A DNA stretch of 63,883 nucleotides, filler included, from Globobulimina sp. (taxonomy: Eukaryota): the NCBI GenBank assembly GCA_003354225.1. It is 14 parts of 14 records of this genome, joined end to end, with 100 filler letters (N's around TTAATTAATTAA, not from the genome) between each part and the next. Parts side by side here need not be neighbours in the genome. Positions count along the whole stretch, not along the records: positions 22,875 to 27,347 come from PIVH01001208.1; 13 more parts are not named here. One strand, written 5' to 3'. The position numbers and the translations under genes were made by a program. Below the pieces are notes generated by a model. It was not told the origin of the DNA. It worked only from the letters and a program-made list of their open reading frames with translations, and ran no database searches. Below are positions 4,478 through 59,418 of the stretch, one piece after another (within the stretch, counting starts at the first letter, position 1; the number at the start of each line of letters is the position of its first letter).

Positions 4478-4577
4478 NNNNNNNNNNNNNNNNNNNNNNN
4501 NNNNNNNNNNNNNNNNNNNNNTTAATTAATTAANNNNNNNNNNNNNNNNNNNNNNNNNNNNNNNNNNNNNNNNNNNN
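4478..4577. other. Artificial contig linker (N-run + TTAATTAATTAA + N-run); 13 such linkers in the window
   Basis: Identical 100-nt spacers also at 9055, 13629, 18202, 22775, 27348, 31920, 36491, 41057, 45623, 50189, 54754 and 59319; contig lengths fall from 4477 to 4465. Confidence 0.99.
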
Positions 4578-7987: not shown

Positions 7988-8068
7988 GTGAACCTAGCTC
8001 AATTGGCAGAGCATTGGTTTGAATGGATTGCAAACCAATGGATGTAGGTTCGAATCCTACGGTGATAT
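7988..8068 (+). tRNA. tRNA-like element or pseudo-tRNA (anticodon ambiguous: GAA Phe or GCA Cys)
   Basis: D-arm TAGCTCAATTGGCAGAGC, anticodon stem TTGGT/ACCAA around a 15-nt loop, perfect T-arm GTAGG-TTCGAAT-CCTAC; acceptor stem only partly paired. Confidence 0.6.
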
Positions 8069-9054: not shown

Positions 9055-9207
9055 NNNNNNNNNNNNNNNNNNNNNNNNNNNNNNNNNNNNNNNNNNNNTT
9101 AATTAATTAANNNNNNNNNNNNNNNNNNNNNNNNNNNNNNNNNNNNNNNNNNNNTGACACCTTCCCATTAGGCTAACTTGGACCACATTCCCCTTAGGGT
9201 TTGGTTC

Positions 9208-22774: not shown

Positions 22775-22874
22775 NNNNNNNNNNNNNNNNNNNNNNNNNN
22801 NNNNNNNNNNNNNNNNNNTTAATTAATTAANNNNNNNNNNNNNNNNNNNNNNNNNNNNNNNNNNNNNNNNNNNN

Positions 22875-24100
22875 TTATTATCCTGTATCAAATCAACTTC
22901 CTCAAATGCATCTTCCTCATCCTCTAAAAACGCATTAACATCATTATCCCCATCATCATCCCCATAAATATCAATATTCAGTTTAGTCAAATCTGGCAAA
23001 TCATCAATATCCATTTCAGTTTGAATAGCTTCCAAAGTTTCCTTCAATTTCATATTCAATGTATTTGTAGATTCCATCAATAAAATCTATTACAAACAAA
23101 ACTAAATTAACTTATAATTAAAAGAAACATACACTTAACAGATTGCGCATTGTTAAACCAAACAGCTGCTTCTTTCTTTTTGTCCAATTTATAAAAACAA
23201 AACGATCCGAGCGCCCAACATTCGCCAATTGCATCATTTGCATTGACCAAACTCCTTAAAATAACAATACATTTTTCATATTGTTGCAATTCAATGCCCA
23301 ACTTAACAATCTTCAGAAATGAGTCGATTGAAAGTGATTTCTCGCAGAAAATGTCCAATTTGTCATCATCCATTTTGTGTTCACTGTCTTTGTTCAAAAA
23401 TAGCTTTTTAATGGAGACATTGAAATATTTTATAGCATCAACAGTATTCTGTTGACAGTGTCTCAATTCAGCAAAAGTTGCATAAGTCTCAATGTTGTCC
23501 ATATCAAACTGCAAAGATAGATTCAAATATTGTTCGCATGTTACGTCAGCACCTTTGTCTCCACATAAATCCGTCATATATAGCTCCGCAATGGATACAT
23601 ACACCGATGATATTTCATATTTTAACGATGATGTGATTTTATTGTCAGTTTTGTGATTTTCATTTTTGAGAATTTTGTTTTTCATTAATTCGATGCCTTT
23701 CTCAAATGCGGATTTTGCAGCATTGCCATAGCATTGTTGTCCAATATAGAGATAATTTGATTCGTTTTCGTTTGGTGACAGTTGGATGCTCTTTAGAAAT
23801 GAGTAAGTATTTTATAATGTAATTAATTATGAATATGATTAAACATCAAATTACGGTAAGAAAGAAAAGGATATCGCTACTTATCTTGTGCGCTTGCAAA
23901 GGTTCACCATGTTCAACATACATTAGAGCTAATTTGTGATGCAATAATGCATTGTTTGGTTGTTGTTTAATTGCATCTTCGTAGTATTTGGCTGCTATTC
24001 CAGGACTAAATTGCTCAAATGCTTGTTCAGCGAATTTGATCAGTTGAGCCACTGATAATGCACTTTGTGGTGTTTTGCATTCTTCTGGTGAGGTGTTCAT
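22875..24100 (-). CDS. ACL4: TPR protein, assembly chaperone of Rpl4, 3'-partial; exons 24100-23885, 23802-23140, 23086-22875
   Basis: TPR repeats, NYLYIGQ, SIAELYMTDLC...CEQYL, acidic tail. Intron 23087-23139 is GT-AG; the first intron is best modelled as AT-AC at 23803-23884. Confidence 0.8.
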
Positions 24101-24277
24101 GATATACTTCAAAAACAGTTTTTTACTTAATGGCAGACTCAGAAAATAAGGGGTGTCGAAAGGTGCATGAATTCTTCTTGTGATGTTTTGTATTCTTCTT
24201 GTGATGTTTGACCTGATGTTTGTGAGCGGTTCGGGGTTTGAAATGCGGAGCGAACTCAGCCTAAAAAAGATTATCTC

Positions 24278-25468
24278 ATGACAGAGATTAAGGTCGATCC
24301 TGAAAAGGAAGATAAAAATGTTTCCACCAAGCAAATAAACGAAAAAGAGCATACAAACTCTTCAGCACCGTTCCATGTTTCAAATATATTGCATTCAACA
24401 TTTGGAATTGATCATTATCCAAATTATTTGCACCGATTCAGTTTAAACAATATATCACAATTAGAACAGCAATTATTATCACAATTAAACCACGTACAAT
24501 CCGCCAAACAACAGCTAACACAAATTGTGGAGTTATCGAAACCATTCGACGGGATATTAAATAAAGACAACAATAAGCTAATAAACAGTATATTACATAG
24601 CAAGTTATTACCATTTGTTAAATATAACAAAACCAATAATAAAATATCATTACAATGGGATTGGAATATGGTTTCTGAAATAATGGCAGAGGAAACTGAC
24701 AATGTTTATTCATTTCCATTGTTTGATGCTAAGTTTTGTGACAAATTATTACAACACACAGATGAATATATAAAATACTTTCAAAATATGAATAAAATTA
24801 ATAACCAAACACATAATGAAAATAATGGCATTGAATATTTGTTATCATCGAGACGCAGTGTGTTGGATTGGATGAACATTGGATGGTTAAATGATTTCTT
24901 ATTGCAACAAATTGTCAATCCAATCACAAAATACTTATTTCAAAAAGAAATGTATTATAACTGCAGTGCAGTGGGTGCAGACCACCAAAATAAAAACAAG
25001 TTCACCAAAGAATATCGTTTATTAGATTGGCGACATGGATATATCATTGGTTATAAAGCAAAGAAAGAACTATATGATGATGTCTATGAACAAGGATTGT
25101 CGCAAATATATCAAAGATCCGGTTTGGTGACGCATACTGATGACAGTGAGATTACAATGAATTGCTGTTTGAAGGATGATTTTGAAGGAGGAACATTGAA
25201 TATATTTAATATGCGAGGTACAGAATATAATGCGAAGGGAAAGGGGAATGAAAGCAAATTGGAAACAGAGCTACAATTAAAAAAAGGATATGCAATTATT
25301 CATCGAGGGAGGCAGTTCCATGAAGTAAAGGATATATACAGTGGAGAAAGAGTAGTATTAATTGTTTGGTGTAGGAGTTTAAATGGAGTAAGAAAAGCAA
25401 TATGTCCTTGTTGTTGGTTAAATCGTAGAAATGATTTGAATTGTATTTGCGGACAGTTATGGAATTGA
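24278..25468 (+). CDS. 2OG-Fe(II) oxygenase (OGFOD2/PLOD C-terminal-like)
   Basis: VYSFPLF, HTDDSEITMN (HxD), FEGGTL, HRGRQFHEV, GERVVLIVW; Cys-rich tail. Confidence 0.85.
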   Translation: MTEIKVDPEKEDKNVSTKQINEKEHTNSSAPFHVSNILHSTFGIDHYPNYLHRFSLNNISQLEQQLLSQLNHVQSAKQQLTQIVELSKPFDGILNKDNNKLINSILHSKLLPFVKYNKTNNKISLQWDWNMVSEIMAEETDNVYSFPLFDAKFCDKLLQHTDEYIKYFQNMNKINNQTHNENNGIEYLLSSRRSVLDWMNIGWLNDFLLQQIVNPITKYLFQKEMYYNCSAVGADHQNKNKFTKEYRLLDWRHGYIIGYKAKKELYDDVYEQGLSQIYQRSGLVTHTDDSEITMNCCLKDDFEGGTLNIFNMRGTEYNAKGKGNESKLETELQLKKGYAIIHRGRQFHEVKDIYSGERVVLIVWCRSLNGVRKAICPCCWLNRRNDLNCICGQLWN

Positions 25469-25561
25469 TATCAATCTGTAACATTTATTTTAATTAAAAA
25501 CAGTCCAAACGATTTTTGACTGTGTCACAGTGTCAGTAAGCTCTACATCAAATACATAATC

Positions 25562-27347
25562 ATGAGCGCTGCAAATTCGAGTGATTCATTACTGGCAATT
25601 GACGCATTGATACAGAATTTTAAAACAAGTCCTTTGCGCATGCAATCAAATAGTAACTATTCAGTTGGCGATGTTGTCAGAATCAATCCAATGAAGAAAA
25701 TAAATACCGTCACTTGTTTAGCACGGATTCGAGCAATTAATATTGCGGATGAGGCATTGTTAAAATTATTGAACAATGATACTGATGAGAAAAAAGAAAA
25801 TATTGCCAATAATAACAATATAAAATACATTGGCGTGGAATATTTTAATTGGAAACCGAAAATAAACAATGAGGCGGATTTGATTATAGATGGAGTTATC
25901 AATGGATTGAAGATATTTGATGTTAAAAAAGCAGGATACGGTGCATTTATAAAAGAAACAAACATCATTGGCTCAGCCTTATGGACTAAATATAAATCGC
26001 GAAAAGCATTAAAATTGAAACATTTTCATCATGACACATTTATCAAAGCAGCTAAATATGGATCAATGCCAGTCATTAAACATATGTTCCAAATGAATTC
26101 TTATCCAAATGACCCGTCCATTATAACATTACCTAAGACCAAAGGTGGATATTCTGCTATTTGTCAAGCGATAGCTTGCAATCACTATGAAATTGTTAAA
26201 TTATTATTAAATAATAGCAGCAAACCCAAACAAGCAAATGACTGCAACAATGACTATAAATATACAGTGCCAAAGTTAAGAATATTAAAAGCCCGAAAGA
26301 ATAGCGACGTGCTGCAATCTGCAGATAAGAAAACAAGGTATTATAATCCCATATTATTTGACAAATTATGCAAAGATGGCAATGTAAAAATGTTGCAGTT
26401 ATTGTTGGAATATGATTCATGGCCCATTTATTATAAATATTCATATGGTTTGTATTTAGCTGCAACTGCTGGCAACTTGGAAGTGGTTAAATTATTACTA
26501 AATTATGTCAACGATGCGTCATATATTAACCTTCCATTATGCCGCGATACCAAACAAAGGACAATAATCCCGCAAACCAACTTAAATTTGTTAAATGTGG
26601 CTATAAGCCATCATCGTTTACCAATCGTGGAATATTTGATCACTGAATGGAAATATCGGGAGGTGATTATTAAAAATAAATGCTTATATTATCCAAATAA
26701 GCCCCATATTTTACCAACGTTATTGTACACAGTGTTGGACTGTCATTTACATTTTGAAGAAAGGATCAATTTTACCTGTGATTGTATTGAGTTATTGACA
26801 AAATATTGTGACCCAATTGATATTGGTTTAAATTGGGTGTGTAACAAAAAATTGTCGGCGCAGCAAAATATTATTATTGGTGATCTATCCGCAAATCCAT
26901 ATTTTGATACAAATGTATTAAATATAAATAGGACATTATGTGTTGGCACGTTGTTGGCAGCGCTGGTTTATAAATGTAAAGCGCTATGGGTCGCCTTTCG
27001 CGTTTATGATGAGGAAAAAAAGGGATTACAGCTTGGATTACAAAGATTAATTACTGTGTTGGTACAAAATGGCATGGATTGGAATATTGCCAAATATGAT
27101 ATGAATGTTAAAAATATAATAATGAAATATACGACATTTCCACATTGGAATATGACGGATTTGGATGTTGATATTTGTGATGATGAGGATTTTGTTAAAT
27201 TTTTCAGGCAAACTGTATCAAACTGTATTGATGTTTTTCGGGGGATTTGGTTGAATGCATTTCTTACTTTTTATAAAGAGGATGCATTGATGGCAAATAT
27301 ATTTAAATGGTATGTTTTGGATTTTGTTGTTCCACCGAATGATATTT
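25562..27347 (+). CDS. CAP-Gly-like plus ankyrin-repeat protein, 3'-partial
   Basis: YIGVEY...DGVINGLKIF...GAFIK (CAP-Gly-like); ankyrin repeats AAKYG, AIACNHYEIVKLLL, AATAGNLEVVKLLL. Confidence 0.7.
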
Positions 27348-27453
27348 NNNNNNNNNNNNNNNNNNNNNNNNNNNNNNNNNNNNNNNNNNNNTTAATTAAT
27401 TAANNNNNNNNNNNNNNNNNNNNNNNNNNNNNNNNNNNNNNNNNNNNAAACAC

Positions 27454-28637
27454 ATGCCCAACACCAGACGTAAACATAAGGGCAAAAAGAAAAAAAAATC
27501 AACACCAAAATCAAAAGAACTGCCATGCAACAAACCAGAATTCTACATCAAACTCACACGCACCCAACAACACTCATTGATTGCTGGCTATTTTCTAATT
27601 CATAAAAAGCTATGCCCAACAGATCTAATGTCAGTAATTCAATCCTTTTATAACGACGTCACTTATCAATATACTATATCCACTCAAGAATTCCAAACCA
27701 AATTCATTGACGCATTGCCAGGCGATCAACTAACATCGAATACATTTGATATCTCCTTAAATAGTCACATATTTACTTTTCAATTATCAGTGTTTCCAAA
27801 TGGATCAGGGACCAACAATGGCTCTGTTGATTTAAATATTGAATGTTTAACAGATTTGGCAGTTTATGATATACTCAAACTGAGCTTTTATCTCATTCTG
27901 TATTGTCCAGAAACAGGCAACGAAACGAGAGGATGCAGAGTCATTACAAACAAGGACAAAGTGCGAAGATGGGCTGGCTACTCAATGAAATTAACGCAAT
28001 GTCACAAATACTCTCAAATGAATTTCAAATGTTATGTGGATTTACTGAGGTATATAAGTCACTGTATTTTGAGCATTTGATGTAAAAACATATTATATAT
28101 ATATATATGAAAAGGATTGAATATATTACGAAAAAAACACATTACCATAGTGATAATGACGGGAATATAATGAATTCAAACATTGAATTTAACTTTGAGA
28201 TCACAAAGAAGTTTGCAAGTATTTGGGGACAGTTGTATTATTCGAATAATTTCAATTCAAATTATTGGACAGCGCTCTGTATCCCAGAGGGACATAGTTT
28301 TGATGAAAGAAGTAATTTTAAATTGCGATTGAGATTACTTCGAATGCCCTTTGAAGTGAATTACATGCAAATTAAGTTTTTGATGATGATCAAAGGTTTT
28401 GAGAAGCACGGAATATGTAAGAATGCAATATTTACCATCAATAATGATGATAATAAGAATAATTATCATCTGACATTTGATGCTCAGCAGTCTGTGTTGT
28501 TGAGTAAGTTATCGGTATGGACTGCGAGCGTAACTATACAAGTTATGAAATTGTTTGATTTTAAGGAGAAACCAATACCGCCACAACTATGGAGTGAGCA
28601 TAATGTTATTTATCAGTGGGATCCGGTTAAATTGTAA
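27454..28637 (+). CDS. MATH/TRAF-like beta-domain protein; exons 27454-28049 and 28115-28637
   Basis: SNTF...FQLSVFPNG..NNGSVDLNI and YSNNF..YWTALCIPEG resemble two MATH domains; 65-nt intron joins the frames. Confidence 0.6.
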
Positions 28638-39512: not shown

Positions 39513-41021
39513 ATGGCTGCTTTAGTGAATGCAATAAAATTTAGGCATTTGTTTGACCAATTAACAGAGGAAGAATGTGACCAATTTATGTCAAAATTAT
39601 CAAAATCACAGAATTTTTTATGGCACACAATTATCAAAATTATCAGAGGAATTTTTGGCACACAATCTATCGCATCGTTGTTGTTTAATTCATGGTCTTC
39701 AAAACTCCAAACTATGATATCTGATAAGCAAATGATTGATATTGTTGACATAATATCAGATATTATTGAGTCAAGAGATAATCCGCAAACAAATGACGAT
39801 ATTAATATTGTTACAACAATCCATTATTTAATTGGTGAAATTGCCTCATATTTAAATGCCAACAATCACTCAAAATTTGCACGAAGTAACAGAGCAATAT
39901 ATATTGGATGCAATTCACCAAATTCTTTGCAAGAAATGGATTTAATTGACGCTCATTATGATAATAAAAAGGATTATAATTATTCGTTGGTGGATTTGAG
40001 TAAATATTCATCCCTTAAAACGTTACAGATTAAACTGAAAGATTTTGATAAATTCCGTTTGCCGAAAGATGGCAAATTAATTTTGAATAATTTAACAAAT
40101 ATACGCTTAGCAAGTAATTTATATCCCCGCGGTCCAGTTAATATTACACCATTTATGACACAAAAATGTATTAACTTTGATAAAATTGAAACATTATCCT
40201 TACATTCAATGAACAGCGATAATTTTTGGAATTTATTGCGTAAATTTAAAAATATAAAGCATTTACGATTAGACGACATATATATTAATCAATACATTCC
40301 TGACAATGAAATAAAAATATTATTTCCAAATTTAAAGCAACTTTCATGCAGTGATTTAGCCACAGAATTGACAAATAAATTTGTGCATTTTTATGGACAT
40401 AATTTGAAACATTTAGGTTTAAAATACTCGGATTTATTTTTAGATGACGTTGACTTTAAGAATTTGAATGAATTAACTCTGGACAATGCAACAGAACAAA
40501 CCATGTCTAATATTTTAAAATCTGCAAAAATGTTAAAAAAATGTAAAATGGACTTTTATAATCATGAAGACAATGGAATTGGTATCAAAAATATAATTAG
40601 CAATTTAATCTCAAATTCAATAGTTTTGGAATGTATTCAATTTGATACAAAGTATAATGATTTGGTGAATGTAATGAATGGAATGGAAGCGGGATTGTTA
40701 AGGACAAAAAAGATTAAACGAAAATATTTAAAGATAGGAATCACAACAAGGCCAAAAACAGCTGACATTTATGATATTGTATTATTTATTTCAAGAATTA
40801 AGGATATATTGGATTTATCACAAATCGATGATTATATGTTATTTTTTAAATTAGAAGGATCATATATCGATATCGAAGAAGTGAATCAAGCAATTAATGA
40901 GTTTCAATGTTTTGCGATAAAATGTTATGAGAAAGTTGGAGAATTTGCAGGAGCAAAGTTTAAAATGATTTGTATTGTTGCAATGAACAAAGGTTGTAAA
41001 ATAAATGAAGGACATTTATAA
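39513..41021 (+). CDS. F-box-like/leucine-rich-repeat-like protein
   Basis: LIGEIASYL...FARSNRAIY followed by degenerate LxxLxL repeats (LKTLQI, IETLSL, IKHLRL, LKQLS, LKHLGL, LNELTL). Confidence 0.6.
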   Translation: MAALVNAIKFRHLFDQLTEEECDQFMSKLSKSQNFLWHTIIKIIRGIFGTQSIASLLFNSWSSKLQTMISDKQMIDIVDIISDIIESRDNPQTNDDINIVTTIHYLIGEIASYLNANNHSKFARSNRAIYIGCNSPNSLQEMDLIDAHYDNKKDYNYSLVDLSKYSSLKTLQIKLKDFDKFRLPKDGKLILNNLTNIRLASNLYPRGPVNITPFMTQKCINFDKIETLSLHSMNSDNFWNLLRKFKNIKHLRLDDIYINQYIPDNEIKILFPNLKQLSCSDLATELTNKFVHFYGHNLKHLGLKYSDLFLDDVDFKNLNELTLDNATEQTMSNILKSAKMLKKCKMDFYNHEDNGIGIKNIISNLISNSIVLECIQFDTKYNDLVNVMNGMEAGLLRTKKIKRKYLKIGITTRPKTADIYDIVLFISRIKDILDLSQIDDYMLFFKLEGSYIDIEEVNQAINEFQCFAIKCYEKVGEFAGAKFKMICIVAMNKGCKINEGHL

Positions 41022-54900: not shown

Positions 54901-56547
54901 GCTCATGAACGTACGTTGCATACAGATATTTTGTTTGGTTTATTGAAGGATATGTGCCGAGCCCGCAAGGATTTGAAACTGATCATCTCCTCCGCCACTT
55001 TGGAGGCGTCCAAATTCTGCGATTTTTTCGACAACGCGCCTCAATACAAAATCCCTGGCCGCTGCTTTAAAATCGACATTTATTACTTGAAAGCGCCAGA
55101 ACCTAACTACGTGGAAGCAGTCTGCATTTCAGTCTTACAGTTCCATGTCACGCAGCCATTGGGCGACGTGCTAGTTTTCCTGACGGGTCAGGAAGAGATT
55201 GATCTTTGTAAACAGTCGCTGGAGCAACGCACGCGCAAACTGGGCAAACGCATCCGGGAATTGATAATCCTGCCCATTTACGCCAACTTACCCGCGGAGC
55301 AACAGATACGTATATTCGAGCCCACTCCGGCCAATGCTCGCAAAGTGGTGCTGGCCACCAACATCGCAGAGACCTCGCTGACCATTGACAACATTGTGTA
55401 TGTCATTGATCCCGGCTTCAACAAACAAAATAATTATTGTGCGCGCACTGGCATGGACTCGTTGTGTGTCACTCCGATCAGTAAAGCTTCTGCGGAACAA
55501 AGAGCCGGTCGAGCCGGCAGAACTGCGCCGGGTAAATGTTTCCGGTTATATACGAAAGCAGCGTTTAGCAATCAAATGGAGGAGATGACCATTCCTGAGA
55601 TACAGCGCACGAACTTAGGCAATGTGGTGCTGTTATTGAAGTCGCTGGGCATTAATGACTTGATTCATTTTGATTTTATGGACGCGCCGCCCGCCGAGAC
55701 TCTGATGCGAGCATTGGAGCTGTTGTATGGTTTGGGCGCGTTGAACAATTGCGGTGAGCTCACCACTTTGGGCCGGAAGATGGCGGAGTTCCCCGTGGAC
55801 CCACAACTTAGTAAATGTTTGTGCGAATCTGGCAAATATAAATGTTGTAAAGAGATACTGACGATTGCCGCCATGTTGTCTGCCAATCATCAAATTTATT
55901 ACATTCCAAAGGATCAGGATATTGCGGCGGATACACTGCATAGAAATTTTTATAGGTTACCCGGTGGCGATCATTATACTTTGTTGAATATATACAATCA
56001 ATGGAGGGATGATACGAATTATAGTAAGAATTGGTGCGAACAGAATTTTTTACAGTTCCGAGCCTTGAACCGGGCGCGAGATATTCGAGAACAATTAGAA
56101 GGTTTATGTGAGAGAGTTGAAATTGATGCGAATGTGTCGGTTTATGATGAGAAGAATGGGAGTTATCGGAATGAGGAGGATGATGATGTTGGGAATGTCA
56201 ATGAATTTGAATATATTGGCTGCGCGTTGACTGCTGGATATTTTTTCCATACTGCGAAAATTACAAATAATGGGCAATATAAAACAATTCGATTTAATGA
56301 GGAAGTACAAATCCATCCATCGTCATGTTTGTCAAAATCTGAACTTTTGCCGAAATGGATATTATTTCATGAATTGGTTTTGACTTCGTCTGAATTTATG
56401 AGAAATGTAATTGAAATTCAACCAAAATGGATCACGGAGGTTGCTCCACACTTTTACAAAAAAGAAGCTGTCGAAAAAGCACAAGCTAAAATGCCAAAAA
56501 ATGCAATTCGGAATCAACGACTCAATCCAAATAAATATCAGTATTAA
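54901..56547 (+). CDS. DHX16: Spliceosomal DEAH-box helicase Prp2/DHX16, 5'-partial (exon starts after an acceptor at 54900)
   Basis: (DE)[53 protein letters not shown]2 and OB-fold tail; DHX16-type residues. Confidence 0.9.
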
Positions 56548-59002: not shown

Positions 59003-59418
59003 GGTGACAACTCTGACAATTTATTTAAGAAACGAGAAAGAATGGGTCAAAACAGCATATAACCAAAACGTCACCAAATCATTAACACACATTATTCATT
59101 TTTAACCAATCAATCAGTGTACAAAGATTTTAAATTGCGAGATGTTAAAGAGGTAATTAGTGACTTTGCTTTGAAGGTAATAAATAATGATTCATCTTGT
59201 CAAATCTCGCGAAAATATGACTGCTAGAATTGTCTTAACAATTATGTAATATTATATATTTGGAATTTGATCGAACGTCTTGCCACTATGTTCAAAATAT
59301 GCTGTTTGACAAGTGTACNNNNNNNNNNNNNNNNNNNNNNNNNNNNNNNNNNNNNNNNNNNNTTAATTAATTAANNNNNNNNNNNNNNNNNNNNNNNNNN
59401 NNNNNNNNNNNNNNNNNN

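Follow-up and report, generated by a model that had tools for sequence, protein, structure and literature searches.

The window, by which we mean the whole analysed stretch of 63,883 nucleotides from Globobulimina sp., consists of 14 separate pieces of ~4.47 kb each, between which lie 100-nt spacers of the form N44-TTAATTAATTAA-N44 (4478-4577, 9055-9154, ... 59319-59418). Genes at the piece ends are truncated, and adjacent pieces are not necessarily linked. The piece at 22875..27347 carries, on the minus strand, an Acl4-like TPR gene whose 3' end is missing. The features of this gene that are relevant here are listed below in the order of transcription; a slash marks the exon-intron border.

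23885..24100, minus strand: coding part of exon 1 (ATG at 24100, last codons CACAAG, His-Lys), covered by the spliced contigs
23879..23887, minus strand: 5' splice site AAG/ATAAGT, 7/8 matches to AG/GTRAGT and 3/9 to the U12 string RTATCCTTT
23803..23884, minus strand: intron 1, 82 nt, AT-AC termini ATAAGT...ACTTAC, phase 0, 22% G+C, skipped exactly by 3/3 spliced contigs
23866..23874, minus strand: ATATCCTTT, a perfect look-alike of a U12 5' splice site, 10 nt inside intron 1, unused in the contigs seen
23791..23854, minus strand: alternative GT-AG intron, 64 nt, GTAATT...TAAAG, in frame, absent from all contigs
23822..23826, minus strand: TTAAT, putative branch site of the U2 type, with the adenosine 20 nt from the 3' splice site
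23140..23802, minus strand: exon 2, 221 codons, first codons TCA TTT CTA AAG, with homologues at E 1.7e-88 and below
23087..23139, minus strand: intron 2, 53 nt, canonical GT-AG (GTTAAGT...AATAG), removed in the same three contigs as intron 1
22875..23086, minus strand: exon 3, incomplete, since the piece stops at 22875, where the artificial spacer starts; the contigs have loose ends there

Exon 1 gave a TPR_17 Pfam match (E 2.8e-6). With exon 2 as the query 16 relatives were found, an exhaustive search returned 745 at E <= 0.001, and the homologue search among longer proteins gave no match. Among named cellular homologues, the nearest come from animals, show ~30% identity and are annotated as 'uncharacterized'. 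None of the exon 2 homologue matches is a database protein identical to the gene product, which fits the gene having been missed or mis-modelled there. A profile of the TPR protein and its relatives matched solved Acl4 chains (PDB 4ynw, 4ynv, 5tqb) in one long stretch with E values of 3e-17 to 4.7e-17; the best match, 4ynw_A (E 3e-17), is a single stretch over profile positions 19-199. On the basis of this match to solved Acl4 structures, the naming of the gene as ACL4 in a preliminary description of this DNA is supported at the family level. The TPR build and an acidic tail are common to the foraminiferal protein and to Acl4, the assembly chaperone of ribosomal protein uL4, whereas the identity between the two is low, and uL4 binding by the foraminiferal protein is putative.

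The first intron in genome and transcripts

On the gene strand, the exon letters ...CACAAG are followed by ATAAGT...ACTTAC and then by TCATTT..., and the coordinates and letters of the 82-nt AT...AC segment (23884..23803) had been given exactly in the preliminary description. Downstream of an in-frame TAA (23814-23812), no AG occurs before the TCA codon is reached at 23802; models that encode the conserved residues after the junction therefore need a non-AG acceptor. There is no second copy of intron 1 within the window (longest other match, 14 nt), and its region shows no unusual RNA fold (z 0.28), so that a non-conventional intron defined by structure is ruled out. On the same two grounds, the missing repeat copy in the window and the unremarkable fold, intron 1 was also rejected as an introner or hairpin element.

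Seven sequencing runs were found, and the contigs of four of them (X1-X4) were compared with the window over 22850-24250. X1, X2 and X3 stem from two studies and at most two samples, as X1 and X3 come from one sample, and the RNA label of the runs is a guess. From each of these three runs a single contig (1150-1253 nt) was obtained in which 23885 is joined to 23802 and the 82 nt are skipped. The skipped ends read GT..AT on the plus strand (AT..AC in the direction of the gene) and have no letters in common ('both' = 0); the junction is thus unambiguous and cannot slide. The same contigs also join 23140 to 23086, skipping 53 nt with CT..AC on the plus strand, equivalent to GT..AG on the gene strand. 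In X4, a DNA-like run, a contig over 23103-24001 keeps both introns and is 100% identical to the window, with 0 differences. Since both introns are absent from the X1, X2 and X3 contigs and kept in X4, the spliced contigs behave as processed messages. The AT...AC ends, by which type II introns are recognised, accordingly stand at a junction supported by 3/3 spliced contigs, which are themselves ~3% diverged from the window.

The X4 contig also bears on whether the letters AT and AC are false and arose through faulty assembly or sequencing. In favour of this are the strong fragmentation of the assembly and the low depth of X4 (~5). However, the agreement over 23103-24001 was obtained with Logan's separate assembly of X4, even if this may share reads with the window, and it is very unlikely that two errors would hit exactly the first and the last intron base. 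Taken as a whole, we consider such an error hardly credible.

In the spliced contigs, 33-35 letters (~3%) deviate from the window. They thus represent a ~97% identical copy and can be attributed to a different allele or strain or to a close species; the intron ends of that copy do not appear in the contigs. The 33 tabulated differences between transcript and window, for example at 23695, 23633 and 24002, comprise 17 synonymous and 16 non-synonymous changes, and none damages the frame, so that both copies look constrained. Because of this divergence, and since no contig identical to the window is spliced, the window copy might be a splicing-dead allele, with the transcripts stemming from a sister copy, allelic or in another strain, whose ends at these positions are GT-AG. 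This appears quite improbable to us. It needs a +1 G to A and a last-base G to C change, precisely the single combination known to be functional, and this pair would have to arise in a ~3% diverged copy with an intact frame and with half of the differences synonymous. Decay would rather be expected to produce mutants at a single end than a matched pair. By this argument, a GT-AG state in the copy from which the transcripts came is unlikely.

As had been described, an in-frame 64-nt GT-AG alternative exists, and its product is six residues longer. A cDNA with this junction had been named as the observation that would speak against the AT-AC intron; only the 82-nt junction was seen, and the alternative is disfavoured. 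The 64-nt GT-AG intron or another site may be used at a minor level, as contigs cannot reveal rare isoforms. The two products were also compared at the protein level, using 161 proteins from the exon 2 and exhaustive searches, 33 of which do not span the junction. Of the 128 homologues that do, 121 align with a better score to the AT-AC product and 5 to the 64-nt product, and 2 give a tie. Furthermore, five foraminifer-type orthologues (P0001, a Nonionella stella transcriptome protein, and P0002, P0003, P0004 and P0009) read AH[KN][SA]F[LQ]KSI across the junction without a gap.

The prediction that removal of the AT-AC segment creates an exact 34-residue TPR was thus borne out by the spliced contigs and by the orthologue alignment, which had been proposed as a check and which reads straight through the junction as expected for the AT-AC product, in line with the preference of 121/128 homologues. 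Together with the Acl4 profile match, these two lines of evidence also uphold the central claim of the preliminary description, namely that this gene has a genuine AT-AC intron whose donor is U2-like.

At its 5' end on the gene strand, the X3 contig reaches 24164 and then continues into adapter-like letters, so that the transcript may start nearby, ~65 nt upstream of the ATG. The TPR gene (minus strand) is arranged head to head with an OGFOD2-like ORF of the 2OG-oxygenase type (plus strand, ATG at 24278), whose Pfam match (E 7.4e-6) is under the cutoff. The two start codons are 177 nt apart, and the region 24100-24278 may be a promoter region shared by both.

Splice signals and the spliceosome involved

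The donor consensus of the major spliceosome is AG/GTRAGT, and that of U12-type introns is RTATCCTTT. The sole mismatch of the intron 1 donor to the U2 consensus is the +1 A, and ATAAGT had been read correctly as a U2 donor with +1 A (7/8 consensus matches). In contrast, the U12 donor RTATCCTT is not found at +1 of intron 1. A scan of intron 1 for CCTTRA or a TCCTTRAY-like box gave no hit, neither at the usual distance of a U12 branch box (about 10-20 nt from the 3' splice site) nor elsewhere in the intron, which confirms that no such box is visible near the 3' end. The candidate branch site TTAAT fits YTRAY, and a TTAAT is likewise present in the RNA-confirmed intron 2, at the same distance of 20 nt between its A and the 3' end. 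The fit to the U2 donor, the lack of a U12 branch box and a TTAAT as in intron 2 suggest that intron 1 is a U2-type ("type II") AT-AC intron.

The direct observations are the sequence of the genomic DNA, a junction placed to the base in processed transcripts of a copy with ~97% identity, and the agreement of this junction with homologous proteins. The best explanation for these observations is a genuine spliceosomal AT-AC intron of 'type II', presumably removed by the major (U2-dependent) spliceosome, a reading to which we assign a probability of roughly 80%. U1 and U6 would then recognise the donor AAG/AUAAGU, which is perfect apart from the +1 A, and U2 would pair at the TTAAT-like branch site, ~20 nt before the intron ends. 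During the second step, a compatible A-C pair would take the place of the non-Watson-Crick G-G contact that the two terminal intron bases usually form. The compatibility of a terminal A-C pair is established by double-mutant work in yeast and mammals.

Wu and Krainer reportedly dealt with U2-dependent AT-AC introns in 1997. Intron 1 resembles known U2-dependent ('type II') examples, such as those of human SCN4A and SCN5A, in its AT-AC termini, in a U2 donor deviating at the +1 A, in having neither a U12 donor nor a U12 branch box, and in great rarity. It differs from them in its foraminiferal (Rhizaria) host, its very short length (82 nt) and its AT-richness, and its snRNP dependence is putative, being deduced from the sequence signals. 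Sheth et al. 2006 (PMC1557818) define U2-type AT-AC introns as those whose donor, the termini aside, agrees well with the U2 type, and their Table 1 counts 24 of them among 610,067 introns of five species.

The terminal dinucleotides of intron 1 are also those of U12-type AT-AC introns. Together with ATATCCTTT, which agrees with the U12 donor consensus at 9/9 positions (intron positions 11-19), they count in favour of removal by the minor (U12-dependent) spliceosome, or of a U12-type ancestry, as a hybrid or as a relic, of which ATATCCTTT would be the trace. However, the donor in use, ATAAGT, differs from ATATCCTT and matches the U12 consensus at only 3/9 positions, and intron 1 has no TCCTTRAY 10-20 nt from its 3' end. 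ATATCCTTT itself does not share the register of the junction conserved in all orthologues. Its position 10 nt downstream had been described correctly, but the accompanying statement that it gives no in-frame product has to be revised: the ATATCC donor forms four in-frame combinations with more distal AC sites, e.g. 23874..23781. These would delete conserved residues, and they do not occur in the contigs.

Furthermore, U12-type motifs are not enriched in the window. ATATCCTT occurs 6 times compared to 3.43 expected, a count that 18/100 shuffles reach, and TCCTTAAC occurs once compared to 1.35 expected. The presence of ATATCCTTT in intron 1 is probably a chance match. A point against the type II reading is that, by a rough estimate made after the fact, such a motif has a chance of ~0.2-0.4% in one 82-nt intron. 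One further U12-like pair was considered on the minus strand at 40697-40807, where ATATCCTT (at 40807) and TCCTTAAC (at 40704) lie ~100 nt apart in one orientation; as the pair is located inside a continuous 502-codon ORF of the plus strand, it was rejected as probably due to chance.

Regarding the minor spliceosome in this supergroup, Olthof et al. (PMC11347168) state that no minor-spliceosome snRNAs were identified in Rhizaria, which argues against the involvement of U12. On the other side, the same paper lists 2.1% 'minor-like' introns for a foraminifer, Reticulomyxa filosa. The main text of PMC10639083 does not mention Rhizaria, Reticulomyxa, Foraminifera or Plasmodiophora. Within the window, the sole Rfam match is a tRNA gene (7992-8063, plus strand). 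Considering the splice signals, the register and counts of the motifs, the snRNA finding for Rhizaria and the GT-AG introns found at the same position in distant relatives (see below), we regard the involvement of the minor spliceosome, as well as a U12-type origin, as very improbable.

Ancestry of the intron position

A scan of metagenome contigs provided 64 loci for comparison, all of them distant, with at most 47% identity over short pieces. Thirty-three of these run through the site as a single segment, so they either lack the intron or are transcripts, 27 are uninformative, and 4 break exactly there. Among the latter, L061 and L062 have identical sequence and contain a 456-nt intron (GTGTGT...TGTAG), and L064 contains a 169-nt intron (GTAAGG...TTCAG); the fourth, L028, shows an acceptor ...CCATAG. 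All are in phase 0 and located at the same residue boundary as intron 1.

The intron position is therefore common to distant relatives, in which the intron is GT-AG with U2-like donors (GTGTGT in L061/L062, GTAAGG in L064). This argues against a U12 ancestry and in favour of a paired terminal change: as the position is ancient and is occupied by GT-AG introns elsewhere, the two terminal bases have evidently changed together. The suggestion that intron 1 is a relic of a U12-to-U2 conversion thus found no support, given the GT-AG introns of the distant relatives, the register of ATATCCTTT and the counts of ATATCCTT reported above. Under the type II reading, the old intron position would most likely go back to a GT-AG ancestor, with both terminal bases having changed together in the foraminiferal lineage.

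The ends of homologous proteins provide some additional hints. P0002 and P0004 are continuous through the site of intron 1, yet run into intron 2, and they are probably derived from genes without intron 1. P0018 starts and stops exactly at the borders of exon 2, and P0005-P0007 start at the first Met of exon 2; the ORFs behind P0005-P0008 and P0018 do not extend past the exon 2 boundary. To judge from these protein ends, the starts of P0005-P0007 are as would be expected if an interruption precedes exon 2.

Significance and further features of the window

The intron class is rare and already known. The example is new for Foraminifera as far as our literature search shows, in which no description of U2-type AT-AC introns in Foraminifera was found. 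It provides a transcript-backed case of a very rare intron class from a poorly sampled supergroup. In addition, it has consequences for annotation: gene finders that allow GT-AG and GC-AG introns only would either break the gene or choose the 64-nt alternative, which places six wrong residues into a TPR helix.

Foraminifera might also tolerate or accumulate AT-AC introns of the major spliceosome far above the 0.003-0.008% of animals (PMC1557818), a proposition that we consider unlikely. If true, the lineage would represent a natural system for studying the matching of the first and last intron bases. A genome-wide census of junctions in Foraminifera is justified. Within the window, a census based on the joining of ORFs gave 6 donor sites of the ATRAGT..YAC type compared to 3-9 in controls with scrambled ends, and only 4 strong GT-AG donors; these counts do not discriminate and provide no estimate of frequency. 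One of the census hits, at 28054, was rejected as an AT-AC donor, being just a part of the GTATATAAGT donor of an ordinary GT-AG intron. This likely intron (28050-28150, plus strand; GTATATAAGT...CCATAG, 101 nt) is in frame and joins the ORFs 27448-28049 and 28151-28637. Donors in the Globobulimina sp. genome seem to be loose, with GTTAAG and GTATAT as examples.

The window also contains, at 54901-56547 (plus strand), the C-terminal half of a splicing helicase of the DHX16/Prp2 type, which is cut by a piece boundary. That the DNA stems from a foraminifer is borne out by this fragment, which shows 88% identity to a protein of Nonionella stella and 78% to a protein of Elphidium margaritaceum.
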